Shown one piece after another: positions 10,056-59,686 of a stretch of DNA of 64,000 nucleotides (positions are counted from its first letter, which is position 1; each line of letters opens with the position of its first letter). The position numbers and the translations under genes were made by a program. Under the pieces are notes generated by a model. That model saw nothing but the letters and a program-made list of their open reading frames with translations. It had not been told where the DNA came from and made no database searches. Source of the DNA: a virus; the IMG/VR virus record IMGVR_UViG_3300032323_001800, positions 64,001-128,000 of that record; one strand, 5' to 3'.

Positions 10056-10063
10056 TATTTATT
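10056..10063 (-). promoter_or_regulatory. late promoter AATAAATA overlapping the upstream stop codon
   Basis: TAAATA ends 5 nt before the ATG at 10050. Confidence 0.55.
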
Positions 10064-13000: not shown

Positions 13001-16000
13001 AATTTTGTCCCTGAAGAACTGTCACAAACTCAGTATAATTTGTATCGTCAATTCTTTCGTAAATTCCTGTAACAGAATTTCTTAGATAAATGTTGATTGC
13101 TTGCCCATCTAGTGGCACTTCGGGCAATACAAACATATTTGTAGTTCCGTCGGCAGTAATATAAAAATCTGAATTTAAAGAATCAACGCTATCCCAGCCT
13201 TCCGTAAACCAAGGCAGTGCATCCCAGCCGCCGCTGACGTCTAGTGTGGCACCTTGAACTACTACTCCACCAAAGTCTATTCCTGTTATTAGTTGAGAAT
13301 AGTCGTAATCAATCTTAATGATTTCTTGCGTAATATCATCTCTAATAACAGTTTTTTCTAATCCTATCATTCCATCTGTAGGATTATAATATTTGTCTAT
13401 CCTGTTGAGAGAATCTAATGATTGGTCATTTTTCTCATATTCAACAGTTACAAGAATGGTTTTTGCTGGTGCTGAATTAAGTGTTAGTTTTCCTACTTGG
13501 ATAGTTAATCCATTAACTTTAGTAGTATCAATAGATACACTGTACTGGCCGGTTAATAGCTTTTGTCCTGGTGAAGTAGTTGTATCAGTTATTAATTTTG
13601 TATAGACATTTACCTTTGTCTTGTCAAGTGCTGCAGGATATTTTAACTCAAATACAGTCTTACTTCCAGTGCCAGTAAAGGTTTGAATTTCTTTAAATTT
13701 CTCATCCAACGCCTTGGCTGTAAATGTAGATGATTTACTTACTCTATCAAATTTCATCGATACATCAAAAGTTCTTGCTTTTGTGTTTCCAATTACCGCA
13801 ATAGCAGTTGCAGCGTTTGATAAGTTAGTTCCAACCCCGCCTACTAATTTTACCGTTGGCGCAGAAATATATCCAGTTCCGCTGTTAGTTAATACTATTC
13901 GACTAACTTTTCCATTAGAGATAAATGCTCTAGCAGACGCACCTGTGCCACCGCCTCCTTCAAATACCACAATCGGAACAGTTTTATATCCGGATCCAAC
14001 GTTAGATATTTGAATGTCTATTACTGAGTATTTGTAATTGTCTAACCAGTATTTCCATGGATATGTATCAATTTCAGTAGAAATAATTTTAACAGGTTCA
14101 ATACTGTTAGTATCAGGATTATATACCGAAGGAACATCGAAGTCGCTGAAACTTGTCGATGTATTTTCAGTTCTAATATATCTACTTGTATATTCTCGTA
14201 TCTTAGTTCGGTACGGTTTGACTTCTTCTATATACTTTTGATAGCTAGGTAAATTGTCACTCTTGTAAGTGATCTTTTGTGTTAAATTTCCAACGTTATG
14301 GATGGCATTAACAAAACTTGTTTTAAACGCCCAATCTACATATAACTGTTCTGAAAATGCATAATGAATATTAGCAAAGAAAAGTTTATTCCATTCTACT
14401 CGCAGATCATCTAAGAAAATATCATTCTTAACAGATTCTAAAATAATTCTAAACTCTCTAGCCGAAGACTGATCGTATCCATTACTATCAAATGATGTAG
14501 TCTTATCATATCCTGTAGAATTACTTTCAGTGTTTATAAAACTGTCATTTATTTGTATTGTTCCGTTTGATCTACCAACAAGTCGATACTTATCGAGTAT
14601 AGTTGAATTTTCTATAGACGTTCTTTCTAGTACTGCCCAGTTGCCAGCACCATACTCTCGTATTCTTAGCAATTGACCAATTGTTAAATTAACTTCAGAT
14701 TCTTGATATAGTCCTACAATTTCATTAGTGATTCTAGATTTTTCTGAGAACCCTTCAGCCCACCAATCAATAGTAGTCCAGTAATTTCTTGTGTTGTATG
14801 ATTGAGTAGCAGTTCTATAAAACTCTTTTGCTTTTTCATTCCAGCTGTAGATGCTCCAATAATTTCTCACAGTTGAATCAGATTTAACTAAAACTGCAAA
14901 TTGTCTAACAGACAACGCTGCTGAAAGATATTTTGCTCCAGAATTTACAACAGTCACAGATATTACTCTACCCAATCGATCAATGTTGGCACGCAATATC
15001 GCGCCTGATCCTGATCCAGTAACTATAATTGGAGGAGATACCCTATATCCATATCCGGCTTCAATAACATCTACAGTATCAATTTTTCCATTAGCAATAT
15101 TTGCTTTTAAAATTGCGGGAGATATCTTTGACGTAGAAACTAATGCTAATTCTTCTTTAGTTTCTACCGTTCTATCATATAGATTTTTAACATCTGCCGG
15201 GGCAACTTCAAAAGAATTTAATCTAGTAGTATTAATAATTTCTGCAAACGGTCTTGTTTTTAAAATATTATTAATAAAATCTAAAGTTATTTGTGTTGCT
15301 TTGTTTCTATCAACAAACATACTCTGACGAGGTCTGCTTGATAAACCATACTTAAATTTTGTTGGCAGTTTAAAATCTGGAACATCTTTTCCTGTAATAT
15401 CGTAACCAATTAATGAATCAATCCATTTATTTTCTAGTTCAGGAGACGGCAGGCTGTCTGCTACTCCTTCGGTTAGAAGCTGATATTCTCTATGGACTTG
15501 ATTAATTTGTTTGCTGTTTTTATAGAACTGAATAGTAACAGATACATTATTTCCAGTAATTGCTATTGTCGGATTATATACTGCAATTTTTTCGTTGTCT
15601 ATTAATGCCGCAAAAGTTATTCCTGTACCTAAAGGATTTTGAATGTATTGAGCTACTGAACTTGCAGCAATCTTTCTAAAGTTTTTATTAGTTGGTAACG
15701 TTATTTTATCTTTAACCCAGTAATAATAAATTCGAGAACTTACTCTTCCAGTCAAAATATCTACATTTTCTTTAACAGAGTATGAACTATTATCAGGGTA
15801 TAGTGGTGTTCCCGATACTCCAACACTGAATGCGTCAGCTGTGACTGTTATATCAGCCCACTCACTAGGAAGATATTCAGTTTCAACCCATTCATACACA
15901 TCAATCGACGATCCGTATGCTAAAGAGTTCCATCCTCCTAACTTGTAAGAAATGTCACCCTGGTTATAATTTGCCCACTTAACTGTGCTTGTGTCCCACC

Positions 16001-19000
16001 ACAAATAACCTACCATGTTGTCAAACCAGGCTCTAGATGCGTCAGCAGAAGTACCAACTGAATAAACTGCAGGATCGTAGGATGTTTTAAATTTTAATTC
16101 TTGTTCAGCGACTGATAAAATTTTTCCGTTTAACGGATCTATTACATCAACGTCTAATAGTTTAATATTTGAATCGGAATCGAATAAAGATAACGATTTT
16201 AATAATGTTAAATCAACTACAGGCTCTTGGCTACGTAACGGTGACCAGGCATTGATATTTTTATATTTTCTAAATGTTTGAACCTTACCTATGACTGAAC
16301 CAAGAAATGCATCTTCCGAAGATGTAAATGCAGGAGATCCTATAATCACTCGATCGTCAAAACATGCTAAAGATTTTCCAAAATTTTCTCCAGTGATTAA
16401 ACCTTCATCAAAAGATTCAGATAATATAAACGTATCACCGTATCTATTATAGATATAAACTTTACCAGTAATTCCTACCGGGTCTCTAAATCTTGTTAGC
16501 AAGTAGTCAAAGTTAGTTTCGCCTCTATCAAAATTTATTAATGTAGATGCTACAGCCGAACCTGCAGTAATGGCTATTGTGTCAGCCGTTGGAGATACTG
16601 ATATTTCGTCTCCGAATCTTTCAAAGAAATCAAAAGAGTAACTTTCTAATCGTTGAATATATTCAAATCTATTATTAACATTTTTAAAGACGAACACAGC
16701 ACCTTTGTCTTTTTCTTTAATGTCGGCATCCGGAGCTGAAACAAATAATAAATTTCCTTCACGGCTTAATACAACCTTAAATCCAAGCTCGTCTCCGGAC
16801 TCTAGATCGTCAGTGATAATATCATTATCGTCGATCGTTTGAACTAGTTCATAAATGTTTTCTTGATTTTTTAGATAAACAAATACTGCTCCAGTATTAT
16901 ATTCAGATGCGTTCGATACCTTTTCCCATACTGTTCCACTAACTGGAAGTTGATTTAAACTTTCAATAGCTAGTAATTTATAATATGTTGGTTGTGCTGA
17001 CTCGACAATTTTTACAACATCGTTACGATTATATTCTTGATAAGACTTCCATGTACCTTTATAATTTTCTAAATCCGCAGTATCGGCAAACGGAGCTCCT
17101 ACTACTAACAACGACGCATCTGAGGACATTGTTGTAGAATATCCATATCGATCTCCTACATTTAATAACTCAGGAGTTTGATCTCCAACCAAACCAACTT
17201 CAATAGATGAACCATCATTCGGATAAGCAGGCTGTATTGGCAATATACCAGCATTGAGAGAATTAACTAATTCCCAACCAACTGTGTCTGTTGTAATCGT
17301 TGTACCGCTATTTTTAAAATACGGAACAGTTGATCTCCAATAGTTATTATTATACCATACTATCGATCCAGTTGCATAATCGTTGGCTGGGTTAAAAATC
17401 CCTACAAAGTTATTATCATCCGATTGTGTCCAATTAATACCGTCAAAACTGTATAGATAAATTCTTCCTTTGCTATCTAACGCACCAGGAGCAGAAATAG
17501 CCATATAATATGCTTCTGATGCTCCTCCTATGTTAGATCCTAAAATTCTAATTTGGTCTCCAACGTTATATCGTGTTCCTCGAACATTAACCGTAGCAGC
17601 ATATCTGCCGTTAGATCTAACCAGTTCAAAAATTGCTCCTGAACCGCTTTGACTAATGTCAGTACCAATAATATCCGAATATGACCCTAACCCTACTGAT
17701 GTTCCTACGAAACTAACTCCGGATTTAGCAACACCTGAGATAGTAAAGTTTCTGATACTGTTATCAATAAACTTCATTGGATTAGCAGATGGCGATGATG
17801 CTGATGTTAAAGTTACAATTTGTTTTGTTAAAGGGTCACTGTAAATTGTAAAAGATGTACTGTTAATAATCTCTTTTACAAAGTACTGGCTTCCTGAAGA
17901 AATCCCGCCGACCGCACTGCCTGTAAAGACAATAGGCATATCAACTCTTAATGTAGCTGTAGATCCTACAACAACCGTTGAGTTAGTTTCAAATGTTCCA
18001 ACAGTGGTTATTGGTAAGTTTGGGCTTACTCTAATTAAAAGATCGTTAGCCGGTGTGTCACCGCCCAGTGTTGTACCCGGAACCAAAATAGTAGATCCCG
18101 ATCTATATTTTGTCAAGTCTCCTAAATTGCCATCCGATGTTGATGTTACATAGGCTTTCCATGGAGTTGCTAAACTTAAAAATGTGCCTGCTGAAACTTC
18201 TTCCCAATATTCAAGATTAGTAGGGAGAATCGGTTCTGATACTTCCCAATAGTCAGTATCAGTTGGTAACACAAATTGTACTTCTTGTATTGATCCATCC
18301 AGTCCATTTTTAACTCTATAGTACGAAGACGATCTAAACGGATACTTAACCACATCTCCTGTATAGTAAGTGGCGTTCGAGTCCCACACACCTCGATCTG
18401 TCTGGGTATCTTTTATACAGCCATAATATCTTAAACCTAATCCTGGAGCAGAATATGAAACAATACTTCTTCCAGTGTATCCCACACCTCTGTTGATTAT
18501 TGCTACTGCGTATGTATTTCTAGTACGTGTTACATTAAACACAGCCTCATTAGTTGGAATAGTGGAGTTAATACCTGTAAGATTAGAATATGTTTCAGAT
18601 CCAATAATTGAACCGCCGGTGTCAATGGCTGTTACTGTAATTAACAAATCGTTTTCTGGAGACGACCCACCTACCTGTGTTCCTAATACATTTATTTGAT
18701 CACCTAACGCATATCTTGTACCGCCGTTTCTCACGGTTACTACATATGTGCCACCGGATTTTGTAATGTTAAACGAAGCGCCATTTCCTGAATCACTGAT
18801 GTCTGTACCACCAATGTTTTGGTATGTGGCATCTTTTAATCCGCTAGTTCCCACAGCATCAACAATAGTAATACCGCCGTTAGGGTCAATTGCTTTAACA
18901 ATTAACGTTACATCACCGCTGGTGCCTTCAATACCTTCTTGTTTTCCGATTGAAACACTGCTACCAAATAGTTCGTTAGCTTCCGGGCGAGGACTGATAA

Positions 19001-22000
19001 TTGTTTTTCTATATGTCCATTGACCTTGTGTAAATTCAAAAATATCAACACATCCCTGTTTAGGGTATCCTGGATTAGTACCTATTAAGTTCTTAGCTGC
19101 AGGTTGTGCTTCATGTAGATCAACTGGGCTCCAGTCATCGCTACTTAGGTTGATTGTGCTGCCGTCACCTAAAATAGGTTTGTTAGCTTTCCATAATTTT
19201 CCTGTGTAAATCACAGTGTCGTTGGTATTATATTCTGCCGAGGTACTATACTGCCCTTTAAATCCAGAAGGAATTCCAGAAGCAGTTGGTGACGCAACAA
19301 GTAACCATCTTCCGTCCGGACTTACCGATAACACAGTTCCGTATGATCCTAATAGCTCAGGTGCAATTTCAAATATAGGACTTAATACTTGACTAGGTAC
19401 TAGGCCGTCTAAACTCTGTGTATAAACAATTACAGCAGAATCTCTCGATGTATCGTTAGAAGCAACTCTAGCACCAGGATTAGACACAATAGTCTGATCC
19501 CTTGACGGAACGTAAGCAACCGCACTGCCCATGCTTGCTGGGAACGAAACACCATATTCTGATATTCCTGTTTTAGAATATTGTTTTGTACGCTGTAATA
19601 CTTCCCAATTTCCGGTAGCATTTTTATCTAACCATACTTTAGAACCTAATGGAAGAATTGAAAAATCTTCCTTTATTAATTCGTCAGTGCTGGATATTCT
19701 CGCTGGCAGGAAAACACCAACATTACAGAAAGAACTTTGATCTATTTCTGGTGGTTCTTCAAATCCCAATACCTCTATAACGATTGTTGTAGTGTTTGAC
19801 GCTTTAATTTTATAAAAACCTGTCAACCCTTTAATATTTGTTAAACCAATAATAGTTCCGGTTGTTAAACGATGTGGTCTGTTAGTTGTTATAACTGCAT
19901 TTCGTTGATCAATGGCCGCAACCGCAATTACTGTTACATTGGTTATTTTATATCGTAAAATATCCCAACCACCCGTTTCATACGTTATCCAAATTACAGA
20001 ACCATCATTAAACTGTGTTACATCGTTTCCGATTAATTCATCAAAATTCTTAATTACAAAATCTACGTCATCGACATTAACATACCCTGCTCCGGAATTA
20101 GGAACAGAAATATTTTTAGTTTGAATAATTTGATTTTTACTATCACCAATTTGATAATTTTGGTCTGATAATACTATGTAATTTTTATATTCATTTTGAT
20201 CAATTGAACGATCATTTAAAATAATAGGTTGAGGATTTAGTTTAAATTGGTCTTTGCCTATTTTAAATTCAATTTCATTAAATTGATCTGTTCCACCAAT
20301 TTGTCCTAATCTAAATGCCCATTCTTCATTTATTTCAATAGCATCGCTATCAACAGAACTTATTTTATCAAATATTTTTTTGATAGAATTGTTAGTTCCT
20401 TTTTCTCTAATAAATCCTTGATATAATCTGTATTGTGTTACATCGTCTTCGGCAAGATCTCGTAGATAATCTCTAGATTGATATCCAATAGAATGTCTAG
20501 CTAATTCTCGCTGACTAGATCCCAACCCTTCCGAATCTAAATCATAAAAGTCTTCAAACTGACTTATCCTATAATCAAAATTTGCTACTAAACCAGTTTC
20601 AGGACGACTATCTAATTTTTCCCAGTTGCTAGGATTAAATTCAGCCTCTCCCGATTGTGCTACTTTGCTTACGTAATTAAATTCTTTATAGGTAGCAATA
20701 TCTCCTAATTTGTAATCAACAAACGGTGACCACGGTTGGATATTGACATCGTCGAATAAAAATCCAGGGCTAGTATAATCGCCATCCCAATCAGTTGTTC
20801 TAAAACCTAAAACTTTGATTCTCTGCTGTCTATATCCTGGACCCTTGTCAAACATGACATCATTGAACATAGTTCTATCAGAAAATACAACTACGTGTTC
20901 TTTTAACACATAGTTAATTCTAGCAAAATATATGCCGTCTCTGATATTAACTGGAGCTATAGCAAATTCGTTGTATCGTCTTATAACATCAATGTTTGCC
21001 GGTAATAATTTAGTTCCGTCGCTCTTTAAAATTGTATATTCATAAAATGAATCTAAAAGGTTATCTGCAACTCCGCCGGTAGATATTAATTTTAATTTAA
21101 TGGCTGCAGGGCTTACTGATAAGATTGCTCCCGGTGCCCAGTTATGACTGGTCCAGAACATAAATTCTTTTGATGTAGTTTCCCAGTTAGCAACTGATTG
21201 AAGTTCGCTGCTGAACTCGTCGAATACAAATCCAAGATCTTTTAATCGTTCTCCGTATCCTAATAAGAAATCAACAACATCTTGAACTGTTTCTAACGCT
21301 GTTCCGTATGATAATCTCTTTAAATCTGTCTTGTCAAAATATGTTCTTTTGGTTGCTTCAATAGCACCAACAAGAGGAATTTGAGTTATTCTAACCCATT
21401 TAGTTGCATCAAACTGGTCTTCCGATGTGTGGGCTGTTACAGATCTAAAAAATTGCTCGTTGTATCTTACAATTATACCTTTGGTATAGAATTGATTGTT
21501 TTGCCACGCAACGTATGTTTCGCTAACACCGCCTACAAATATTTTAGGATCTGCGTTGGTTGGTAACGAAGGATAATATTCAAAATATGTGTTTAGTCGA
21601 TCATATCCTCTAATAATCCATGCTCTAGCCGACTTTTCAAGTATAACTCCGGAATATGTAAGACTCTGTACAGATGATCCGATGTTAAAAAATATGTCAT
21701 AATTTTCTGGAGGTATAAAAACACTGCTTGTAGATGCCTGTGGATTTTTAGAATCTAAAATATATTTCTGTTGTGACTTATCAACAAATCCGCCAATTCT
21801 ATTAGACATGTTAATATCAAAATTTTCTAATTTTTCAATTAATGATGTTTTGTCTTTTAGATCAACTTTTAAATAATTGTCAATATAGTAAAACAATCCA
21901 GACGGAGTAATATCGCCATTAAGGATTTCCAGTAAGTCAGAAATTTTAACAAAATAATTACTGTTAGAACTTACAAGCTGACCTAATTTATTTTTCTTAA

Positions 22001-25000
22001 CTTTAGTTTTATCTAAACTTGCAGGAATAAATTCAAAAGGTCTTAATAAGCACAAAGCAAAAATAACACTGAACGGATAAGCAGAACTTTTTCTCCAAGC
22101 ATACTCTGCCGGAGCGACATCACCAAATTTAAAATCTAGTTGATTATTAAATGTAGAATAATTGTCAAGAACATTTAATAGTAACGGATTTTTTAATTCA
22201 CCGTCTTCATCTGTAGGAATAATATCTAGTAAATTAGATCTCTTATATCTGTCATGCTGGCCGGCTCGTGGGCCTTGACGAATTATACCGTCCTTTAAGT
22301 CTTCCCATAAAATTAAGTTTCCGCTGGTATATGGAGCAGGACCGTATTCATCTTCCCACCATAGTGGTTTTTGTGTAAAGCCCAACATTTCCCAAGGTGA
22401 AATATGTGGTCTGTCAGTATCATATAAAGATAAAAACATACCTCGCCAAAAGCTAGGCAATTCTTCTCGAGTAGTTTTATCGACTACTTGAGAATATGTA
22501 TAAGTGAATGGGTTTGACACTTGATAAAAATTATTACCAAATAGATCAATGTCAGTAGTGGATGCCCATCTTAAAAATTCTTGATTTATTACTGTATTAA
22601 AATTAGACTGTGTAAAGATTCCAGTTTTATAAAATGACGATAATGTTTTATCAATATCAAATGTTTCTTCGTCATATTCAATTTTTATGTTATTATAAAT
22701 TCGTTTTTCTAATTCTAATAATAAATCGTCTCTAAAGTCGTTGAATGCAATTGTTATACTGCCGTCGTGGCCTCTTATTACCTTTTTAGGTTCTAGGTAT
22801 GTAGTATCAACATAGATTTCTGGTTCGTATTTTTTATACATTCCCATCTTGGTAGGTGTGGGAGGTACAAAGTTAAATGCTGTTGAAAAATATTCTTTAA
22901 TTTGAATATTATCGTTTTCATTTAATGGTTTTAAAATTTTAACAAAACCAAACGTAGCATCAAACTCGTAGTCTTTACCGTTAATGCCTTGTTGATTGTT
23001 TATATACACATAGGTTGCTTTCGATGATATTACCGATAGATCAAATTTGTCACCTAAGGAAAACACATTGATACCAGTGTCTTCAACAGTATAATCAATA
23101 GTCGTAAACGCACCAGAACCTACCATGTCAGAATCAACAAATGGTGATTTAATTGTTTTTGCCTGAGAAATAGTTGTTAAAATATCATCAACAAATTTAA
23201 CAGGATCTCCGTTATCATATGGCAATTCTATAGCTAATGTTAAAAAATTATTTTTAAACTTTTCGTATTCAGCTGAAGCAAATCTAATCGAATTTATTAT
23301 ATTTGTTTCTTTATTGCACAACAAATTAATCGACAAAGTTGGAATACCGGAATGTTTTAAAAATCTTCTTCCGTACTGTTCATAATCAATTAAATCTCTT
23401 AAATTGCCGCTACCGGGATATGTTCCTTCAAATCCATCGACTAGCTCAACCATTGATCCTAAATGATCGTTAAGCTGTCCTAAAGTAAATGACTGTAGAT
23501 CTTGATTTAACGGATTTCTTTCAAGACCAAACGGGATTTCATAATAACCATCAACTGGTTCAGCGTCTGAATAAACTTTAAAGGTCACAGTGTCACCTGA
23601 TATCAGTTTATTACTAACAGTTATTTTCTTTTTATTGTTTTCAATAACAGTACTAATAGGAGTTACTAAATTTCCATTAACATAGCAAATTGTTTTATCT
23701 CTAGTAGATGAATTCCAATCACATGCTGTTGAAATTACAACATTGGTATCTTCTAATACTGTAATCGTTTGAATAATTGCCTGCAAATATTTGCTGTCAA
23801 TCAGTGTCCATCCGTTTTCGTATGTGTATTCAGTTAATGATCTATTATTTCTATAATACCCTTTATTCACTAATTCTGTGATAATTTGAAAATTTTCTTG
23901 GTATGAGAAGTTATCACGGTCCCAGTCAAATTCAAACTGGATGTCTCCTGAATTGTTAATATTCAGATAGCTTAATGGAAACTCGAGTTCGGTATCATTA
24001 TTTCCCGTACCAATCACATAACTAATAATTTCTGATCCAGTAAATGACGAAGTGTTGTACTTTGTTAAATCTCCTACAGATACCCCGTCAATGTCAAATA
24101 CATCAAATAGTGGCGGTTGATTTACCTTTGTTTTTTCTTGGCTTCTAATCCATGATTCACCGTTAAAGTGAAACATCTTATTTCTATTTTCTACACCACG
24201 TTTAACAACCAGCCCTTCACCGGGATTAGAAACAGTGTCTGTAGTCTCTATCAAACTAATTTGTCGTCTATTAACAATATTAGTACTAGCTTGTACTGTA
24301 ATAAATTTAACTTCAAATATTTTATTTTTTACTAAAGGATCAGTGTCTGCTGTAAAAAGAATTCGATATCCGTCTGTTAAAGGCTCTCCGTCAATGTTAT
24401 AACCAGATGACCCTTCGATGACTGAAAATATATCAGTAGTAAAGTCGTCAATTAAATCAACACTGGTTTTAGCAACAACGCCATGATTAAACAGTTGAAG
24501 GTCGGCATTAAATTCAATAATTGGTCTTTTTGCTCTTAGATTTTCATCTATTTTTGCATCAGTGTTATTGAGCTCTCCGGTATATTCTAATACAGATCTA
24601 TGGAACCATCTATTATATCTGCTCCATGGATTTTTATCTAAACTAGATCGATTAATTGTGATATAGTCTTTGCTTCTTGGATACGATAGTGATTCATCAA
24701 ACGGTTGGTCATCGAATCCGCCATCGTCAAACAACACTTCTGGATTAGGATTCGAAATAGGTGGAAGTTCAATGGTTTCCCAATTAATTAATCGTATAGC
24801 ATCTCCAACACCCTCGATTACCCAAGATCCTTGTTTATAAATTGAAGGTGATGTTTGTCCTTCAAATTTAACTCTTAGACCATTGGTAAATTTAACTCCG
24901 TTCGAACTAATATATTTTTGCTTGCCTATAACATCTTTCTCAATATCTAAGAAAGTGTTTTCTTTAATTTCAGCGATCCTAAATGTTCCAACTCTATCTC

Positions 25001-25760
25001 GAGTGGTCGAACTTTGATAATATAATAATTCAGGAGCATCGTTAGGTACTTCAAATATAACTTTTCCTACTTGAGTTCCGCTGTTAGTCACTCCCTTGGT
25101 ATAATTTGATTGCTCACCTAATACATTTGAGGTTCTGATAAAAAACGGGTCGCCTGGCGAATTTACGTCAAATTCGTAAGTTTGGCCGCGGTATAAAGTA
25201 ATTGACGGATTTTTCTTAAGTCCGTCTGGATAAAAAATCCACTCTGATGTTCCGCTGGTTCTCACACGGTACGATGATATTGTTTCTCTTGCTTGTCCTT
25301 GAACAGCAACCGAATCAACTCCAACTGGTTGCCAATAATATTCTCTGTAATTAACAAATTTGTCCCAGTCAATAGGAGGAGCCCAAGCATATGAATCATT
25401 GCCTGTAATTTGATCATCTCTTTCTAGACTGTTGCCAAAGAATTTTAATTGATTTTTAAAATCAATATAATCGTTGAATTCAGAGATTCTATTGTTTTTT
25501 CTAACAACTACAGCAGGTTCTAATTGATAAGCATCACGTAATGTATCGGCTCTATCTATATAGACATCAGTCGAGTTAAAAGTTTTTCCGTACTTTCTTC
25601 CAATGTATCCAGATAACTTTTCTAAAGTACCTGGTTGTACAAGAGCGTCTAACGTAGCACCTAAGAATTTTTCATTGGCGTTAGTCTGAAAAATATCAGG
25701 TAACAGTTCAATAGTTCTTCTAATAGGCAATCCGCTAGATTTAAAAACTTTATTTTCCAT
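10062..25760 (-). CDS. giant baseplate wedge protein in the gp7 position (5232 aa)
   Basis: Uninterrupted ORF directly after gp6. Contains a cupredoxin-like segment (ITLYRGQTYEFDVNSPGDPFFI), FG-GAP-like propeller blades, CBM5/12-like W-x6-Y-x2-G-x2-V motifs, GSGA-type repeats and a coiled coil. The gp7 call rests on synteny. Confidence 0.7.
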   Translation of the reverse strand: MENKVFKSSGLPIRRTIELLPDIFQTNANEKFLGATLDALVQPGTLEKLSGYIGRKYGKTFNSTDVYIDRADTLRDAYQLEPAVVVRKNNRISEFNDYIDFKNQLKFFGNSLERDDQITGNDSYAWAPPIDWDKFVNYREYYWQPVGVDSVAVQGQARETISSYRVRTSGTSEWIFYPDGLKKNPSITLYRGQTYEFDVNSPGDPFFIRTSNVLGEQSNYTKGVTNSGTQVGKVIFEVPNDAPELLYYQSSTTRDRVGTFRIAEIKENTFLDIEKDVIGKQKYISSNGVKFTNGLRVKFEGQTSPSIYKQGSWVIEGVGDAIRLINWETIELPPISNPNPEVLFDDGGFDDQPFDESLSYPRSKDYITINRSSLDKNPWSRYNRWFHRSVLEYTGELNNTDAKIDENLRAKRPIIEFNADLQLFNHGVVAKTSVDLIDDFTTDIFSVIEGSSGYNIDGEPLTDGYRILFTADTDPLVKNKIFEVKFITVQASTNIVNRRQISLIETTDTVSNPGEGLVVKRGVENRNKMFHFNGESWIRSQEKTKVNQPPLFDVFDIDGVSVGDLTKYNTSSFTGSEIISYVIGTGNNDTELEFPLSYLNINNSGDIQFEFDWDRDNFSYQENFQIITELVNKGYYRNNRSLTEYTYENGWTLIDSKYLQAIIQTITVLEDTNVVISTACDWNSSTRDKTICYVNGNLVTPISTVIENNKKKITVSNKLISGDTVTFKVYSDAEPVDGYYEIPFGLERNPLNQDLQSFTLGQLNDHLGSMVELVDGFEGTYPGSGNLRDLIDYEQYGRRFLKHSGIPTLSINLLCNKETNIINSIRFASAEYEKFKNNFLTLAIELPYDNGDPVKFVDDILTTISQAKTIKSPFVDSDMVGSGAFTTIDYTVEDTGINVFSLGDKFDLSVISSKATYVYINNQQGINGKDYEFDATFGFVKILKPLNENDNIQIKEYFSTAFNFVPPTPTKMGMYKKYEPEIYVDTTYLEPKKVIRGHDGSITIAFNDFRDDLLLELEKRIYNNIKIEYDEETFDIDKTLSSFYKTGIFTQSNFNTVINQEFLRWASTTDIDLFGNNFYQVSNPFTYTYSQVVDKTTREELPSFWRGMFLSLYDTDRPHISPWEMLGFTQKPLWWEDEYGPAPYTSGNLILWEDLKDGIIRQGPRAGQHDRYKRSNLLDIIPTDEDGELKNPLLLNVLDNYSTFNNQLDFKFGDVAPAEYAWRKSSAYPFSVIFALCLLRPFEFIPASLDKTKVKKNKLGQLVSSNSNYFVKISDLLEILNGDITPSGLFYYIDNYLKVDLKDKTSLIEKLENFDINMSNRIGGFVDKSQQKYILDSKNPQASTSSVFIPPENYDIFFNIGSSVQSLTYSGVILEKSARAWIIRGYDRLNTYFEYYPSLPTNADPKIFVGGVSETYVAWQNNQFYTKGIIVRYNEQFFRSVTAHTSEDQFDATKWVRITQIPLVGAIEATKRTYFDKTDLKRLSYGTALETVQDVVDFLLGYGERLKDLGFVFDEFSSELQSVANWETTSKEFMFWTSHNWAPGAILSVSPAAIKLKLISTGGVADNLLDSFYEYTILKSDGTKLLPANIDVIRRYNEFAIAPVNIRDGIYFARINYVLKEHVVVFSDRTMFNDVMFDKGPGYRQQRIKVLGFRTTDWDGDYTSPGFLFDDVNIQPWSPFVDYKLGDIATYKEFNYVSKVAQSGEAEFNPSNWEKLDSRPETGLVANFDYRISQFEDFYDLDSEGLGSSQRELARHSIGYQSRDYLRDLAEDDVTQYRLYQGFIREKGTNNSIKKIFDKISSVDSDAIEINEEWAFRLGQIGGTDQFNEIEFKIGKDQFKLNPQPIILNDRSIDQNEYKNYIVLSDQNYQIGDSKNQIIQTKNISVPNSGAGYVNVDDVDFVIKNFDELIGNDVTQFNDGSVIWITYETGGWDILRYKITNVTVIAVAAIDQRNAVITTNRPHRLTTGTIIGLTNIKGLTGFYKIKASNTTTIVIEVLGFEEPPEIDQSSFCNVGVFLPARISSTDELIKEDFSILPLGSKVWLDKNATGNWEVLQRTKQYSKTGISEYGVSFPASMGSAVAYVPSRDQTIVSNPGARVASNDTSRDSAVIVYTQSLDGLVPSQVLSPIFEIAPELLGSYGTVLSVSPDGRWLLVASPTASGIPSGFKGQYSTSAEYNTNDTVIYTGKLWKANKPILGDGSTINLSSDDWSPVDLHEAQPAAKNLIGTNPGYPKQGCVDIFEFTQGQWTYRKTIISPRPEANELFGSSVSIGKQEGIEGTSGDVTLIVKAIDPNGGITIVDAVGTSGLKDATYQNIGGTDISDSGNGASFNITKSGGTYVVTVRNGGTRYALGDQINVLGTQVGGSSPENDLLITVTAIDTGGSIIGSETYSNLTGINSTIPTNEAVFNVTRTRNTYAVAIINRGVGYTGRSIVSYSAPGLGLRYYGCIKDTQTDRGVWDSNATYYTGDVVKYPFRSSSYYRVKNGLDGSIQEVQFVLPTDTDYWEVSEPILPTNLEYWEEVSAGTFLSLATPWKAYVTSTSDGNLGDLTKYRSGSTILVPGTTLGGDTPANDLLIRVSPNLPITTVGTFETNSTVVVGSTATLRVDMPIVFTGSAVGGISSGSQYFVKEIINSTSFTIYSDPLTKQIVTLTSASSPSANPMKFIDNSIRNFTISGVAKSGVSFVGTSVGLGSYSDIIGTDISQSGSGAIFELVRSNGRYAATVNVRGTRYNVGDQIRILGSNIGGASEAYYMAISAPGALDSKGRIYLYSFDGINWTQSDDNNFVGIFNPANDYATGSIVWYNNNYWRSTVPYFKNSGTTITTDTVGWELVNSLNAGILPIQPAYPNDGSSIEVGLVGDQTPELLNVGDRYGYSTTMSSDASLLVVGAPFADTADLENYKGTWKSYQEYNRNDVVKIVESAQPTYYKLLAIESLNQLPVSGTVWEKVSNASEYNTGAVFVYLKNQENIYELVQTIDDNDIITDDLESGDELGFKVVLSREGNLLFVSAPDADIKEKDKGAVFVFKNVNNRFEYIQRLESYSFDFFERFGDEISVSPTADTIAITAGSAVASTLINFDRGETNFDYLLTRFRDPVGITGKVYIYNRYGDTFILSESFDEGLITGENFGKSLACFDDRVIIGSPAFTSSEDAFLGSVIGKVQTFRKYKNINAWSPLRSQEPVVDLTLLKSLSLFDSDSNIKLLDVDVIDPLNGKILSVAEQELKFKTSYDPAVYSVGTSADASRAWFDNMVGYLWWDTSTVKWANYNQGDISYKLGGWNSLAYGSSIDVYEWVETEYLPSEWADITVTADAFSVGVSGTPLYPDNSSYSVKENVDILTGRVSSRIYYYWVKDKITLPTNKNFRKIAASSVAQYIQNPLGTGITFAALIDNEKIAVYNPTIAITGNNVSVTIQFYKNSKQINQVHREYQLLTEGVADSLPSPELENKWIDSLIGYDITGKDVPDFKLPTKFKYGLSSRPRQSMFVDRNKATQITLDFINNILKTRPFAEIINTTRLNSFEVAPADVKNLYDRTVETKEELALVSTSKISPAILKANIANGKIDTVDVIEAGYGYRVSPPIIVTGSGSGAILRANIDRLGRVISVTVVNSGAKYLSAALSVRQFAVLVKSDSTVRNYWSIYSWNEKAKEFYRTATQSYNTRNYWTTIDWWAEGFSEKSRITNEIVGLYQESEVNLTIGQLLRIREYGAGNWAVLERTSIENSTILDKYRLVGRSNGTIQINDSFINTESNSTGYDKTTSFDSNGYDQSSAREFRIILESVKNDIFLDDLRVEWNKLFFANIHYAFSEQLYVDWAFKTSFVNAIHNVGNLTQKITYKSDNLPSYQKYIEEVKPYRTKIREYTSRYIRTENTSTSFSDFDVPSVYNPDTNSIEPVKIISTEIDTYPWKYWLDNYKYSVIDIQISNVGSGYKTVPIVVFEGGGGTGASARAFISNGKVSRIVLTNSGTGYISAPTVKLVGGVGTNLSNAATAIAVIGNTKARTFDVSMKFDRVSKSSTFTAKALDEKFKEIQTFTGTGSKTVFELKYPAALDKTKVNVYTKLITDTTTSPGQKLLTGQYSVSIDTTKVNGLTIQVGKLTLNSAPAKTILVTVEYEKNDQSLDSLNRIDKYYNPTDGMIGLEKTVIRDDITQEIIKIDYDYSQLITGIDFGGVVVQGATLDVSGGWDALPWFTEGWDSVDSLNSDFYITADGTTNMFVLPEVPLDGQAINIYLRNSVTGIYERIDDTNYTEFVTVLQGQNLNERRNNLEDQQTTLESQIINQNLIKQQKLNLLNQAQIDRNSANTLLLNKQLEISSIESDITQAENDRGDLQVELSVLNNQKSSIEIQIASTPPTIFVPPSNVIPNPAYQTLVNQLDAIVSAIDDKQTEINDKQDEIDALNVTLDALEAAEAPLILALSNANSALATATTEYNTATQSVVLLEQTLDQVLQNILVLSDAPIDTAVMDTFIGDGSTRSIVIPPAVTIQDGDVLIFRPDTSDGSLSITDANLIDADVSGGLLSSNTTGNLVAPNAINGAYSTATGLTAAEIVIEGDKFISPDQVPAPEENIPGQVLESVSIKVFHSDRQGAPAILSRIYTADGTTILYNIGQTILENSSVIVFVDKVKQEVDVDYTFVSDTQQIRFLTAPINNSLIEIFSISIGGVEILDYREFVGDGSNRYFLTAASYAEAGRVFATVDYSTTPVAFVNSNGVVNNIDKALVEFGIAPPNGSKVSIIVLSGESGTDNSIVRANYQTITVTNTSQRTYAVTDFVELQASATGNVIVELNNKLLRCADTVIQTYDGTNRIVNVGRDPLKTFGGIVQAQVRAYINNIPLIFGIEYEFSAATNSVNVIKQNINHGDVIRVETYEAVQYEIIDNNLVLSNDVILTAGDKIDIIWFDRYSSVDLVKDVRTGGQLNYPLQRAPLGVSYVWVYKNGDRLTPDVDFYIDYPRNTVYLKDSNTEDDEIEIISFATEVYKQPFAFEIFKDILNSHHYNRYTVTDVKLTKELNYYDDEMEVNDATTLSTPQLKLPGIVTINGERIEYLRKVGNVLKDLRRGTLGTSIAITHPVESYVVDVGYREIVPYKESQDRYDFVADGSSEIYTGLPFVPAARKNQQGILVEFTYTNSIPDNFYPCDTIEVFVQGRRLRKDPITVYDSTVGSYSPAGDVTLEAEFSVDNQTNAIRITQTPPAGARITVIKRTGKVWYNQGADEVTTGVTLSQNTTPIAKFLQQRTTKLL

Positions 25761-40411: not shown

Positions 40412-41590
40412 ATGAAAATTACTGACTTAATCGTAGAACAACAATTAGATGAAAAGCCTATGGGAGCTCTATCTGGTATAGGAAATAAAATAGCTTCTAA
40501 ATTTGGTAGTGGCAAAGCTATAGGTAAGTTAGATACTGGGAAGATCGCTAACGATTTAAGAAAGCAGTTTGACATATATCTAGGAAAGACTGGAGAACCA
40601 GCTGAACCTCAAGCTATTATTGATTTCTTATCATCAATGGGGTTACCTACTGATGCTGTTAATGCTAGCTCTGCTGCTGCAACAACAACAGCTCCTGCTA
40701 AAGATATGAAATCAACATTGGGTATCGGTAAAAATGCCGGACAACCAATGGCAACACCTAATCAACCTAAACGAGTTGATCCTACATTAGATCCTAGCGC
40801 ACCAATAGCAGCACCAAATCAACCATCAAGAGTTGATCCTACATTAGATCCTGCTGCGGGTGATACAACCAACTACGATATTCCTACCTTCCAACGCAAG
40901 GGCATGGCACCTCCTGTAACACAGCCAATGGATAAAAATAAATTTAATCAATCTGCTCTTAAAGCTAGATTAAAAGCAGGCTCTGGTGCTGGAAAAGTTA
41001 AAACAGGATTTGGTGGTTACAAAGCTGCCGCGGCTGCTAAAGGACTAAAAGCAGGCATGTATGACTCTGTGTCATACGACGATCTTAAACAAGAATTATT
41101 TTTAACAGAAGCACTAAGCGGTGGGCAAATAGATAAAATATTTCTTGCTACAGCACAATTAATGGCCAAACAAGGATTTGCAGGCGGAAATAACGCAGCA
41201 GCACCGGGTTCTAGCGCAGCAGCACCATCCGGCGCATCAAATACAGCAGCACCGGGTCCAGGCAGCAATCCTCAAAGTTTAGCAAAATCATTCTTGCAAG
41301 GATATAAAGATACACCTGGTGGCCAAAAAGGACAATCTAGTGCCTTTAATAAAACACAAGATCCAAACCAAGACTTTGCTGGAAATTTAAATTTCAATCA
41401 ATTGGCAAAACTATTGCCTAACACTGATCAACAAACATTAATCAGAGCACTGCGATTAGTTATTGGTGGTGGAAAATTAAATCAACAGCAGCTAGGTGTG
41501 TTAGGTGTTGCGATGACAGACATTGTTAAAGCAGATGCCCAAACAACTACTAAAATTATGCAGACTTTGAAAAGAATTAGTGCTGAATAA
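40412..41590 (+). CDS. low-complexity protein, probable internal head/ejected protein (392 aa)
   Basis: MKITDLIVE start, L/I-x-E sites, Ala/Pro/Gly-rich linkers, late promoter upstream; function is inferred. Confidence 0.55.
   Translation: MKITDLIVEQQLDEKPMGALSGIGNKIASKFGSGKAIGKLDTGKIANDLRKQFDIYLGKTGEPAEPQAIIDFLSSMGLPTDAVNASSAAATTTAPAKDMKSTLGIGKNAGQPMATPNQPKRVDPTLDPSAPIAAPNQPSRVDPTLDPAAGDTTNYDIPTFQRKGMAPPVTQPMDKNKFNQSALKARLKAGSGAGKVKTGFGGYKAAAAAKGLKAGMYDSVSYDDLKQELFLTEALSGGQIDKIFLATAQLMAKQGFAGGNNAAAPGSSAAAPSGASNTAAPGPGSNPQSLAKSFLQGYKDTPGGQKGQSSAFNKTQDPNQDFAGNLNFNQLAKLLPNTDQQTLIRALRLVIGGGKLNQQQLGVLGVAMTDIVKADAQTTTKIMQTLKRISAE
40773..40852 (+). repeat. 23-bp direct repeat, 57-nt period (RVDPTLDP x2)
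   Basis: gagttgatcctacattagatcct at 40773-40795 and 40830-40852. Confidence 0.9.
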
Positions 41591-41785
41591 TTAAAAGAAC
41601 GGTAGTCCTGATTTTTTAGTTGTTTCAAAATTTTCTTTGATTATATCGTCTATAATATCTCTTTCGTCAGAAGTTAAATTCATAGACTCGGCGTAGCTAA
41701 TACCGCCTCTCATATACCAAACAGTTCTAAGAGCGTTAGCTTTTATTATCTTGACTTCTTTTTCCATGGCCTCCGACTCCGCCAA
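41591..41785 (-). CDS. gp51-like tail/hub chaperone domain, probably made as the -1 frameshift extension of the upstream gene
   Basis: VWYMRGGISYAESMNLT...II..N motif; the frame stays open upstream to the slippery site at 41821-41827. Confidence 0.65.
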   Translation of the reverse strand: MAESEAMEKEVKIIKANALRTVWYMRGGISYAESMNLTSDERDIIDDIIKENFETTKKSGLPFF

Positions 41786-41805
41786 GATGCTAGGGATATC
41801 TAGTG

Positions 41806-42660
41806 TCAGGAGGCGGCGCCGAAAAAATCGGCTTGGTCAAACGATAAATTAACTTGATACTGATGCTTACAATGTGGGCATTCAGTTGATAACGCATCAA
41901 TCTTTCCAGCATCTCTTGATTTAGATACAGCATCCTGTACTAAAGAAAATATCTTTTTATCTGTGTTAGCTAAAAATTCTTTAATAAACGCAGTATCAGT
42001 AACAATACCCGCAGAACATTCAATCTTGTCAATTGAATCAGACACAGTGTCTATGGTTAATTCAGTTAATTTAATAAAACTAGTTTGAAATAATTCTAAT
42101 TTTTTATCATCGGATATTGATTCATCATTGACGATTGAAAAAATTCTCTGTTGTTCAAAGGTTTTTAATGCTGTTCTTGTAATTTGATCATAGGTTAAAG
42201 GTCTGATCCAAAGCAGCATGTCATTATCTACTTCAAGACGAGTTGAAAACTCTATCTGTCTTAGGCTGTCTAATAGATTTCGAAGATCAACCATTTTTTC
42301 GTCTTGCTCATTACAGTTAGGACATGTAGTACCTACCTCCATTTCTTGACCAAATGTAGCATATCTTATAGATATTAGTACTGCATCGACGTCGATAGCT
42401 GGCATGAACCAAGGATTTTTAATATTGGGCACACAGCTTTTTATAACTTCGACCGTTGAAGCGCCATTCATAAGCGCATCCGGTGTGCGCATCAACAGCT
42501 CGTCTTTAGCAGTCATGGCAAACACCGGTAACTCTCCATTTTCCGGCATGTCTAATGCGTTTGGTGGATAGAATTTTCCTTTGCTAGGCAAGGTCATATA
42601 GATCTTTGGTTGTCTAAAAAACTGCGATAGCGGATTTTTTACCTGATTGTTTTGTTCCAT
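41806..42660 (-). CDS. gp26: gp26-like baseplate hub / tape-measure chaperone
   Basis: NPLSQFFRQPKIYMTLPSKG, MTAKDELL, DVDAVLISIRYATFG, two CxxC pairs (CPNC, CPHC). Start at 42660 or 42672; the track start at 42837 lies inside the divergent tape measure gene. Confidence 0.75.
   Translation of the reverse strand: MEQNNQVKNPLSQFFRQPKIYMTLPSKGKFYPPNALDMPENGELPVFAMTAKDELLMRTPDALMNGASTVEVIKSCVPNIKNPWFMPAIDVDAVLISIRYATFGQEMEVGTTCPNCNEQDEKMVDLRNLLDSLRQIEFSTRLEVDNDMLLWIRPLTYDQITRTALKTFEQQRIFSIVNDESISDDKKLELFQTSFIKLTELTIDTVSDSIDKIECSAGIVTDTAFIKEFLANTDKKIFSLVQDAVSKSRDAGKIDALSTECPHCKHQYQVNLSFDQADFFGAAS
41821..41827 (-). promoter_or_regulatory. candidate -1 programmed frameshift heptamer T TTT TTC
   Basis: X XXY YYZ in the correct phase, four sense codons before the stop (GAT TTT TTC GGC GCC GCC TCC TGA); GC-rich stem begins 7 nt downstream. 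Confidence 0.7.
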
Positions 42661-42695: not shown

Positions 42696-42703
42696 TATTT
42701 ATA
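42696..42703 (-). promoter_or_regulatory. late promoter TATAAATA for the gp26-like gene
   Basis: Exact T4 late consensus on the minus strand. Confidence 0.65.
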
Positions 42704-42739: not shown

Positions 42740-45427
42740 ATGACCGGAAGAGTTGAAATATTTGGTGGGCAATTAGATGGATCAGTGTTATCCAATGCTG
42801 CTACCGAATCTACCTTAAGAGAATTAGTTAATGCCATTAACGGGGTTACTGGCGCAGGTGGTCAAGGCGGTGGCGCTGGCGGAGGTGGTAGCGGAGCTGC
42901 TGGTGGAGTTACCGGTGGGTTTAAAGGCATATCAAAAGTAGCATCAACACTAGCTGGCAGTTTAGGTTCTATGACTAAACTTGTGGTTTCTGGAAATCAA
43001 AGCTTAGGCACATTTGTAGGATCATTAAAAACCGGTATCAAAGGTATTGATAAATTTACAGATGCTGCCGCAGGATTTGTAAAATACTTTGAAGAAGCAC
43101 AGGGAACTTTAAGAGATTTAAGTAAAAACGGTGCTGCATTTAATAACAGTGTATTAGATTTAAAAGAAGCAGCCAGCACAGCTGAAATGGAATTAACACA
43201 ATTTCAAAAGGCTATTCAAATGAACGCCAAAGGATTGCTAGGATACGGTTTAACTTTAACACAGAGTGCGCAACGTGCCTCTAGAATTATCAAAGCAGGC
43301 AGCGATTCAGGTGTAACTACTGCTTTGATGAATTTGGGAATGAGTTCCGAAGAAAGCAGAGAATACATTATGGAATTTTCTGCGTCATTGGCAAAAAGTA
43401 ATAGAGTTCGTGCAACATCGGACGTAACGTTAGCACAAGCATCATTATCATATTATAAAGAACTTGATGCTATAGCAAAAATTACGGGTAAGTCACGCGA
43501 GCAGCAAGAAGAACAACTGAAAGAATTAACTGCTGAAGCAGTGTTTAAATCAAAATTAGCTAGATTAGATGTAGATAAACAGAAAGAAATTCGAATAACA
43601 ATGGCTAAGATACAGGCCAAACAAGGAATGGAAGCAGCACGAATATATAGAGACCAGATAATCGGAGTTTCAGTTCCATTAAGAAAGGCTGCTAGAATGC
43701 AGACAGCATTGTTTAGTGACTCAACAGAAGCTAATAGAAGATTAGCAGATGCTCAATTACGAGGTGTTGTTGGTCAAGAACGAATTAATGAAGTTGTGAA
43801 TAACGGAACAGTTACTAACGCAAAAGCTGCACAGGGATTAGAACATCTTGCTGCCGTAGGAGTAGCAGGTGGCGAATCTGCTGCTGCGGTAGCGGACGCA
43901 TACAAGAGTGTTGTTACACCTATTCTAGACATGGGTGAAAACGTCGATGAAGTTAGTAACGCATCGTTGACGGCTAAAGATAAAGAAGCAAAGGCAGAAC
44001 AGGAACGTATAGGAGTAATGGATAAGACCTTAAATCAATTCCAGGACGCAGTCACACGAGTTCAGGCAGCTCTTGAACGATTAAAAAATACAATTATGCG
44101 AGTAACTACTGAGGCATTAGAACCATTAATTACATGGGCTGGAGAGTTTTTTACAAAAGCATCTCATCTAGCGTCGCAGGGATTAGACAAATTAGCAGAT
44201 TGGATCGAAAGATCGTCTCATCAGTTTGGAACATATGTCGATAAATGGTGGTTTTCTATTAAAGAATTCTTTGGGCCTAAGCTTTTTGTTAAGGTAGGGT
44301 TAGTTTTAGAAAATGGATTTTTAAATATCATGGCCAATGTCATGGAAGCAATTGGAAAGCAGCTCGATAGGGTTGGGTTAGGCGGGCCTATGCTACGGGC
44401 TGCTAAAAATATGAGAGATGCTATAGTAGAAAATACCAGAGCATTTGAGGAAGCTAAGGAAGCAGAAAAGGATCAACTAACTAAAGACAAAGAAGCATTA
44501 GATGCTAGGTTGAGAGTTAGAGAAGCTGAACAAAGAGCAATTGTAGCTGCGCAGCAACAAAGAAGTGCAGGCCGGAGGGAAGCTGCTAGCGCAAGAACTG
44601 CTCCGGCAGAAGCGCAAGCAGGAGTTATTGCTCATTTACAAAAATCAGGTATAACAGATCCTAGAGCAATCGCTAACGTTCTAGCAATGATTCAGGGTGA
44701 AACTGGATTTAGACAAAGAAGTGAGGATTCGCTTGCCGGCACATCAGTTGGTGATATTAGAAATCGAATATTTAAAGGTAATCGAGGTATAGCATCACTA
44801 ACTGATGATCAAATCAACGAAATGAAAAAAGGTGATTCTGCTGGAATATACAATATTGCCTATGACGACAAATATAGAGATCCAAAACATAGACTGGGCA
44901 ATACACAATATGGAGAAGGATTTAAATATCGAGGACGAGGATACCATCAACTTACTGGCAAAGGAAATTACGCAGCAGCATCTAAAGCATTGTTTGGAGA
45001 TGATAGATTAGTTCAAAATCCAGATTTAGTTAATGATCCAAAAATAGCCGGAATGGTAGCAGGTTGGTATTACTCAACAAGCAGTCATGCTAAGGGAAGA
45101 GATCTTACTAATTTTAAAGATGTATACGGTATGACTTCGGGCAACAGTAATAACACCGCTGAGTTATCACGAAGACAGGGATATGCTGACCAATTTTTAC
45201 AACAAATGGGTCCTCAACGAATGGGAAATACCAATCAAGGACCTGCAATTACTGTACCGCCTCCACAATCATCAACAAACCAAGAATCAGCAGTAAATCC
45301 TGTTGCTAATTTAAATAGTAGTATAGACAATATGGTTGCTCTGATGCGAGAACAAATTACACAACAGAAAAATTTAGTTACTGCTGTCAAACGATTAAAC
45401 GGTAATGTACAGACATCAGTTACATAA
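42740..45427 (+). CDS. tape measure-like protein with C-terminal GH19 (lysozyme/chitinase-fold) domain
   Basis: Long Ala/Gln/Lys-rich helical region, then IANVLAMIQGETGF...GEGFKYRGRGYHQLTGKGNY...NPDLV...AGWYY. Confidence 0.8.
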   Translation: MTGRVEIFGGQLDGSVLSNAATESTLRELVNAINGVTGAGGQGGGAGGGGSGAAGGVTGGFKGISKVASTLAGSLGSMTKLVVSGNQSLGTFVGSLKTGIKGIDKFTDAAAGFVKYFEEAQGTLRDLSKNGAAFNNSVLDLKEAASTAEMELTQFQKAIQMNAKGLLGYGLTLTQSAQRASRIIKAGSDSGVTTALMNLGMSSEESREYIMEFSASLAKSNRVRATSDVTLAQASLSYYKELDAIAKITGKSREQQEEQLKELTAEAVFKSKLARLDVDKQKEIRITMAKIQAKQGMEAARIYRDQIIGVSVPLRKAARMQTALFSDSTEANRRLADAQLRGVVGQERINEVVNNGTVTNAKAAQGLEHLAAVGVAGGESAAAVADAYKSVVTPILDMGENVDEVSNASLTAKDKEAKAEQERIGVMDKTLNQFQDAVTRVQAALERLKNTIMRVTTEALEPLITWAGEFFTKASHLASQGLDKLADWIERSSHQFGTYVDKWWFSIKEFFGPKLFVKVGLVLENGFLNIMANVMEAIGKQLDRVGLGGPMLRAAKNMRDAIVENTRAFEEAKEAEKDQLTKDKEALDARLRVREAEQRAIVAAQQQRSAGRREAASARTAPAEAQAGVIAHLQKSGITDPRAIANVLAMIQGETGFRQRSEDSLAGTSVGDIRNRIFKGNRGIASLTDDQINEMKKGDSAGIYNIAYDDKYRDPKHRLGNTQYGEGFKYRGRGYHQLTGKGNYAAASKALFGDDRLVQNPDLVNDPKIAGMVAGWYYSTSSHAKGRDLTNFKDVYGMTSGNSNNTAELSRRQGYADQFLQQMGPQRMGNTNQGPAITVPPPQSSTNQESAVNPVANLNSSIDNMVALMREQITQQKNLVTAVKRLNGNVQTSVT

Positions 45428-59560: not shown

Positions 59561-59686
59561 TATAAATACATTTGATTACGAAAAATGACCAATTTTTCGT
59601 ATGGTTAAACTGTGGTAACCCAGCAAAGAGCCCGTAAGGGATGAAAATTAGGGTAACCGTGAAACGCGGGGTAAAAAGGAGAGCGA
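59561..59686 (+). promoter_or_regulatory. late promoter TATAAATA (59561-59568) plus structured 5' leader
   Basis: 10-bp perfect stem at 59577-59601, ggtta/taacc (59603-59620), ccc-gtaa-ggg (59631-59640), two GGTAACC copies, SD at 59676-59681. Confidence 0.6.

Follow-up and report, generated by a model that had tools for sequence, protein, structure and literature searches.

A probable programmed −1 ribosomal frameshift in the single gp26/gp51-family gene of an uncultured jumbo T4-like phage

The gene and its two reading frames

The window described here is a stretch of 64,000 nucleotides (nt), positions 64,001 to 128,000 of the IMG/VR virus record IMGVR_UViG_3300032323_001800, which has a length of 187,929 bp and an estimated completeness of 53%. 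On its minus strand lies a gene of the family that includes gp26 and gp51 of T4 phage. The 3′ end of this gene carries a slippery heptamer, an open −1 frame, and a potential downstream hairpin—the three parts of a programmed −1 frameshift, as a preliminary description of the window had proposed. The features of the locus are as follows:

41806–42660, minus strand: 0-frame open reading frame (ORF) of the short form, a gp26/gp51-family baseplate-hub assembly protein of 284 amino acids (aa) from ATG 42660, with PF12322 and phrog_150 matches
41821–41827, minus strand: slippery heptamer T_TTT_TTC in X_XXY_YYZ phase, GA[T TTT TTC], by direct reading
41806–41808, minus strand: 0-frame stop TGA, four codons past the heptamer, by direct reading
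41591–41821, minus strand: −1-frame extension of 76 codons plus TAA (41593–41591), by translation
41769–41814, minus strand: putative stimulatory stem-loop with a 6-nt spacer, 5′ arm GCCTCC-T-GAC (41814–41805), 3′ arm GTCGGAGGC (41777–41769)

The 3′ end of the ORF reads CAA GCC GAT TTT TTC GGC GCC GCC TCC TGA on the minus strand; at its 5′ end, ATG 42672 is a second possible start. Translated from 41821, the last base of the heptamer, the −1 frame begins with RRRLLTLDIPSILAESEAMEKE and runs as RRRLLTLDIPSIL...GLPFF without a stop over 76 codons. The long form consists of residues 1–280 and these 76 extension codons, giving 356 aa, and its predicted trans-frame tryptic peptide is ..HQYQVNLSFDQADFFR. 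The heptamer, the in-frame open −1 frame, and products of 284 and 356 aa had all been proposed in the preliminary description and are borne out by direct reading and translation. The earliest canonical start codon in the −1 frame of the window is TTG 41785, at extension codon 13. The GC-rich patch noted earlier is real as well: the 60 nt after the heptamer (41770–41829) have a GC content of 0.567 compared with 0.23–0.45 around them.

The product of the upstream ORF genuinely belongs to the gp26/gp51 family, in line with the earlier label of this ORF as gp26-like. The 284-aa product matches the Pfam family PF12322 "T4_baseplate" with an E-value of 1.1e-13 and 51.8 bits at a cut-off of 24.5 (55.5 bits in the genome search), as well as positions 4–232 of the 282 positions of phrog_150 "baseplate hub". 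The AlphaFold2 model of the 0-frame product has a predicted local distance difference test score (pLDDT) of 86.9 and a predicted template modeling score (pTM) of 0.82, with a poorly ordered last turn (pLDDT 53–68), and a fold search in BFVD returns T4-like baseplate hub assembly proteins with E-values down to 8e-15. The closest cultured relatives, at 29–36% protein identity, are the jumbo phages Atu_ph07, Phosso, PA5oct, XaC1, CBB, and Rak2-like phages. The protein features two zinc-ribbon-like Cys pairs, CPNC (113–116) and CPHC (261–264), which may bind metal. Both CxxC pairs are invariant among the cultured relatives and the in-frame long forms described below. In the closest IMG/VR clade, an alignment comparison finds the first pair (CPNC in the window) not conserved, with P114 alone kept; metal binding by the gp26-like body may be dispensable in part of the family.

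Conservation of the heptamer and of the −1 frame

The comparison was based on two samples. The first comprises 87 loci: six cultured relatives, which were read directly, 80 IMG/VR loci, and the window. The second consists of 80 loci that were independently seeded with different proteins; in 73 of these, body and extension are in different frames. The pooled split-frame set has 158 loci with 138 unique fusion sequences, which fall into 11 clusters of <40% identity and reach down to ~29% identity—including PA5oct, CBB, and Atu_ph07.

At the equivalent site of the gp26-like gene, all six cultured relatives carry NNT TTT TTC. An in-phase TTTTTTC occurs in 87 of 87 loci of the first sample, in 73 of 73 split-frame loci of the second, and in 158 of 158 after pooling; TTTTTTCG is invariant across 69 unique sequences aligned without gaps. 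The 0-frame stop follows 1, 3, 4, 6, or 11 codons past the heptamer in the relatives, and the −1 frame is open for 70–77 aa in all split-frame relatives. With the heptamer and the open −1 frame conserved to this degree, the comparison strongly supports the programmed −1 frameshift that had been put forward. The next base after the heptamer is G in 137 of the 138 unique sequences and A in the remaining one, PA5oct (locus L003). There, L003:2351-2360 reads TTTTTTCAG, and the first −1 residue is a Gln where Arg is otherwise invariant.

The spelling of the heptamer is not explained by conservation of the protein because synonymous sites are fixed against codon bias. TTT accounts for 76% of the Phe codons in these genes, and the 44 Phe-Phe pairs found elsewhere in them are encoded by TTTTTT (26), TTCTTT (15), TTCTTC (2), and TTTTTC (1)—the spelling used in the heptamer being the rarest. 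In addition, codons preceding Phe-Phe (NNT) use T just 61–71% of the time. The NNT-TTT-TTC spelling is thereby expected at a frequency of ~0.12 per sequence or lineage, which corresponds to ~1e-10 over the 11 deeply separated clusters.

The protein sequence of the −1 frame is conserved from the heptamer itself onward. In the six cultured relatives, it reads FF-R-x-(K/R)-L-L..(P)EE.., beginning at the heptamer. Across the set, conservation of the extension begins at codon 1: R1 is invariant (the Gln of PA5oct apart), L5, I12, and L13 are conserved to at least 90%, and W35, R38, G39, and K69 are invariant. The extension alone has no family match in Pfam, PHROGs, or NCBIfam, PHROGs 634 and 150 included. 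Its profile, searched against 1.84 billion representative proteins, yields 449 matches at E<=1e-3.

The hairpin downstream of the heptamer

The stem of the preliminary description, CCTCC-T-GAC (41813–41805) with GTCGGAGG (41777–41770), exists; a further G-C pair (41814/41769) is possible and sets the spacer at 6 nt. The paired RNA has the form GCCUCC-U-GAC / GUC-GGAGGC and encloses a loop of 27 nt, which itself contains a small CTAG hairpin. The stem alone has an energy of −12.8 kcal/mol, and −17.1 kcal/mol is reached once the loop hairpin is included and the first 5 nt are held unpaired. Some relatives (L009–L016) carry GGCUUUCGA / UCGAAAGCC at the position of the window stem.

In the relatives, the hairpin begins about 4–7 nt downstream of the heptamer, and the distance to the 3′ arm differs by clade—about 25, 40–45, or 60 nt. 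Because the 3′ arm sits at differing places and a common RNAalifold structure is lacking, pairing of the arms was assessed sequence by sequence: the 15-nt segment beginning at +4 past the heptamer was paired with the next 80 nt, and the result was compared with shuffles. Among 76 unique sequences, 83% reach p<=0.05 and 63% p<=0.01, with a mean z of −3.5; the window has p = 0.045. The downstream segments have a mean minimum free energy of −17.9 kcal/mol compared with −8.1 kcal/mol inside the gene, and their GC content is also higher (0.43 versus 0.33). The hairpin is read as a conserved structural requirement that would be fulfilled by shifting partners.

Lineages with in-frame long forms and two genes

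About 18 of the matches to the extension profile are proteins of 319–351 aa that carry the gp26-like body and the C-terminal extension in one frame. Their junction reads ..DLDFSxxF-R-x-K-L-I and features a single Phe, so that the frameshift junction equals the in-frame junction plus two T. At the DNA level, the heptamer is absent in seven of seven in-frame loci; the Phe is spelt TTT or TTC and the Arg AGA or CGN. The AlphaFold2 model of one in-frame long form (P0132), for which bodies and extensions were supplied as partial rows of the alignment, has a pLDDT of 96.2 and a pTM of 0.92. A helix (259–268) crosses the junction and is followed by helices 272–299, 306–309, and 314–334, with the extension packed on the body. 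The model suggests that the extension is an integral helical part of the fold.

The number of PF12322 genes per genome follows the type of junction:

Frameshift type: one PF12322 gene in 10 of 10 (Atu_ph07, PA5oct, CBB, Vibrio 2.275.O, the record of the window, and five IMG/VR records of 151–250 kb)
T4: two PF12322 genes, 26 and 51
In-frame long-form type: two PF12322 genes in tandem in 5 of 5 records

In these counts, the predicted frameshift goes with one gene, and its absence with two genes. That lineages without the frameshift have two paralogues, one short and one long, had escaped the preliminary description and is the strongest point. The tandem paralogues occur in uncultured phages of a metagenomic sister lineage (L089–L095), where the genes abut, the short one upstream and the long one downstream (e.g., L094:4992-7014 and L095:5078-6972). 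The upstream copy matches the long-form profile over positions 4–230 with E-values of 1e-29 to 1e-34, without the extension, and ends in ..TFMGSSFLPE.., right after the Phe motif ..F(F/L). In a maximum-likelihood tree, the short tandem copies nest within the frameshift-type bodies (100/97), and T4 gp26 and gp51 are united in a separate clade (100/98), with a long branch for gp26. The one-gene and two-gene arrangements seem to have interchanged more than once. From the grouping of gp26 with gp51, the duplication in T4 may be independent.

Relation of the extension to T4 gp51

Both T4 proteins match PF12322, gp26 with 215.6 bits and gp51 with 177.5 bits. On phrog_150, gp26 covers positions 14–235 and gp51 positions 13–280, about 45 positions further, and the 0-frame product of the window stops at 232; in terms of this profile, gp51 is the gp26 domain with a C-terminal tail. 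When the fusion profile is compared with the gp51 family, the alignment continues as far as the C-terminus (E 3e-4). The extension by itself gives a weak profile match to residues ~222–250 of gp51, for which hhalign gives P-values of 0.0016–0.022. None of 150 and none of 200 column permutations reach the extension–gp51 score, the observed values being 20.4–20.6 compared with 10.2–10.3 +/- 2. Two motifs are common to the extension and the gp51 tail, (F)F-x-(K/R)-L-L..P-(D/E)-E-(I/V) and Y..L...M.P.(E/D)R..(L/V). Local hidden Markov models (HMMs) of body, extension, and fusion were uninformative when run against single T4 proteins, even for gp26.

On balance, these profile comparisons favor homology of the extension with the gp51 tail. 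The earlier label "gp51-like" for the 64-aa ORF has moderate support: the profile aligns to the last ~30 residues of gp51 and outscores all permutations, but at the level of family models, no Pfam or PHROG match accompanies it. T4 gp26 itself (L087:3803-4429) ends in ..KEFFELL, which resembles both the R-x-K-L-L at the start of the extension and the FKLL of gp51. In this respect, gp26 looks like a long form truncated three residues after the junction.

Interpretation and alternatives

Very likely, the single gp26/gp51-family (PF12322) gene of this uncultured jumbo T4-like phage from fresh water undergoes programmed −1 ribosomal frameshifting at its 3′ end. Most ribosomes would read U UUU UUC and four further codons and stop at UGA, releasing the short form of 284 aa. 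A fraction would stall over the heptamer as the hairpin 6 nt downstream is reached. By analogy with canonical X_XXY_YYZ sites, the two transfer RNAs for Phe would then re-pair one base back—from UUU UUC to U-UUU-UU—and translation would proceed in the −1 frame for 76 codons to yield the long form of 356 aa. Both forms would act in the assembly of the baseplate hub, the short form corresponding to T4 gp26 and the long one to T4 gp51, as T4 genetics suggests. The frameshift would fix the ratio of short to long form from one gene, where other lineages use two paralogous genes.

Several observations weigh against this interpretation. Folding of the 81 nt downstream of the heptamer in the window does not exceed that of shuffles (z −0.34), and 69 aligned downstream segments yield no common structure in RNAalifold. 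Because the fold of the window alone is no better than shuffles and its arm pairing reaches p = 0.045, the evidence for the frameshift rests on the relatives. The match between the extension and the gp51 tail is weak, with HH probabilities of 2–16%, and PF28602, the Pfam model for the C-terminal part of gp51, is recorded on gp51 relatives and not on the in-frame long forms. A very divergent second PF12322 paralogue could escape the HMM, the record of the window being just 53% complete. In the cultured-phage records inspected, GenBank annotates the extension as a separate small hypothetical ORF or omits it, and the word "frameshift" is absent from the papers on CBB and Atu_ph07. The proteome papers on phAPEC6, CBB, and Atu_ph07 hold no evidence either way on the long form in virions.

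Transcriptional slippage, in which an extra U is inserted by RNA polymerase into the U6 run and a subset of messenger RNAs encodes the long form, would lead to the same D-F-F-R junction and an identical protein. The six-T homopolymer that it would act on is invariant. Six residues are nevertheless a short run for slippage by bacterial RNA polymerase, and a strictly kept X_XXY_YYZ phase, an invariant C at position 7, and a hairpin ~4–7 nt downstream are hallmarks of a ribosomal event, which makes slippage of the polymerase an improbable origin of the long form.

The annotated arrangement of two separate genes is very improbable. The small ORF would be translated alone, either by ribosomes that re-initiate or are coupled at the upstream stop or from an internal start such as TTG 41785 or ATG 41767, with the T-run merely encoding Phe-Phe. 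GenBank entries of this kind are CBB_249, XaC1_326, NVP2275O_435, and Phosso 319, and gene callers predict hundreds of orphan extension ORFs of 40–98 aa; the N-termini of these predictions are ragged. Indeed, ATG, GTG, or TTG occurs at or before extension codon 3 in 17 of the 138 unique sequences and is missing from the other 121 (88%). Three sequences have their first ATG ahead of the heptamer; in the others it is scattered between extension codons 2 and 47, with codon 37 as its site in 47 of 138. The residues ahead of those starts are conserved, and in 26 of 138 sequences a −1-frame stop stands directly before the heptamer and the frame opens exactly there. An ATGA overlap in Atu_ph07 and Phosso could allow coupled re-initiation, and in the window a GGAG lies 9 nt before ATG 41767. 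Independent translation of the small ORF would not account for three synonymous sites that are fixed against codon bias in 158 of 158 loci, and it has to be set against natural in-frame fusions, a model with a helix across the junction, and a loss of the heptamer in step with the in-frame architecture.

A sequencing indel in the T-run or a decaying, pseudogenized long form—conceivable since homopolymers are error-prone and the window stems from a metagenome assembly—is effectively refuted by the comparative data, with the same arrangement in 158 independent loci, complete genomes of cultured phages among them, and with one Phe instead of two in the in-frame forms, a difference of 2 nt and not a 1-nt error.

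A strictly conserved recoding signal in the gp26/gp51 family argues that the short and the long form are both needed, and this need is supported because the two-gene lineages replace the signal exactly. The swap of recoding with gene duplication constitutes a clean natural experiment, and the question is now testable in tractable cultured phages—PA5oct, CBB, Atu_ph07, and T4. The orphan small-ORF annotations of the extension, in cultured records as well as the hundreds in metagenomes, would need correction. A full-text literature search, with most subscription journals outside its coverage, did not turn up any description of frameshifting in gp26-like genes.

Surroundings of the gene

Upstream of the gp26-like gene and divergent from it lies a plus-strand gene (window 42740–45427) for a protein of 895 aa whose N-terminus is rich in Gly and whose residues 725–785 form a GH19 chitinase-like domain. 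The preliminary description had taken it for the tape measure gene. This assignment was not confirmed: the protein matches GH19 and phrog_181 "endolysin" and has no tape-measure family match in Pfam, PHROGs, or NCBIfam; T4 gp29 belongs to phrog_1283. Its homologue CBB_251 is a virion protein, identified with 29 peptides in the CBB paper. On the other side, a 392-aa Ala/Gly/Pro-rich protein (window 40412–41590, plus strand) converges on the extension ORF with adjacent stop codons and has no match in Pfam, PHROGs, or NCBIfam. The baseplate region of the window also contains a single ORF of 5232 aa (10062–25760, minus strand). One regulatory element may precede the gp26-like gene:

42696–42703, minus strand: possible T4-type late promoter TATAAATA upstream of the gp26-like gene

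Exact copies of this T4 late-promoter consensus occur twice in the window, the second at 59561–59568 on the plus strand; ~10.6 are expected in shuffles, and the match is not significant. A scan for sigma-70 promoters and terminators found nothing, and an Rfam scan of 41500–42000 returned a chance U11 match only.

Comparison with known systems

The dnaX gene of Escherichia coli yields tau and gamma by means of the heptamer A_AAA_AAG and a downstream hairpin (PMC7412058). As proposed for the window, two products of one gene are made in a ratio that is set by −1 frameshifting of the bacterial type, with a stem-loop downstream. In contrast to the window, the shifted product of dnaX is the shorter one, an upstream Shine-Dalgarno sequence acts as a stimulator, and the function is unrelated.

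The lambda G/GT-type chaperones, reportedly described by Levin, Hendrix and Casjens (1993), include E/E+E′ of P2 and their counterpart in Mu, both contractile-tail phages, and Xu, Hendrix and Duda (2004) reportedly detected frameshifted chaperone pairs among the tail-assembly genes of most long-tailed phages. We know of no such pair described for T4-like phages, and the roles of T4 gp26 and gp51 have been obscure for decades. Like the window, where the sequence signals point the same way, lambda G/GT features a tail-assembly gene with a −1 shift close to its 3′ end, which leads to a short and a C-terminally extended form with a common N-terminal body, and both families are regarded as assembly chaperones. 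Unlike the lambda gene, the window gene does not lie between the tube and tape-measure genes and is divergent from the 895-aa neighbor. The window protein matches none of the tail-assembly-chaperone families in Pfam, PHROGs, or NCBIfam, and searches of both models against PDB folds (Foldseek, VIA-align) return generic helical-hairpin matches (Z ~8), which give no basis for a statement on similarity to G/GT. Tentatively, the gp26/gp51 family could be the missing counterpart of the G/GT pair in T4-like and jumbo contractile-tail phages. Both forms would then be required for the hub around the tape measure and would be supplied interchangeably by a frameshift (PA5oct, Rak2-like phages, Atu_ph07, and uncultured phages) or by two paralogues (T4 26/51 and the tandem lineage).

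In T4, gp26 and gp51 are both listed as hub assembly chaperones (Leiman et al. 2010, PMC3004832). With 208 and 249 aa, respectively, they match PF12322 and phrog_150 as the window protein does. T4 gp26 stops three residues past the conserved Phe-Phe and the 0-frame product of the window four residues past it, and gp51 goes on into a helical tail that gives a weak alignment with the extension profile. Unlike the window, T4 has two divergent neighboring genes, 26 and 51, and no heptamer (TTC TTT), and the extension of the window is ~25 residues longer than the gp51 tail.

The tandem PF12322 paralogues of the uncultured phages share the body and the extension domain with the window, and their short copy ends where the 0-frame product of the window does. 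They differ in having two genes, in lacking the heptamer, and in the one Phe at the junction of the long form.

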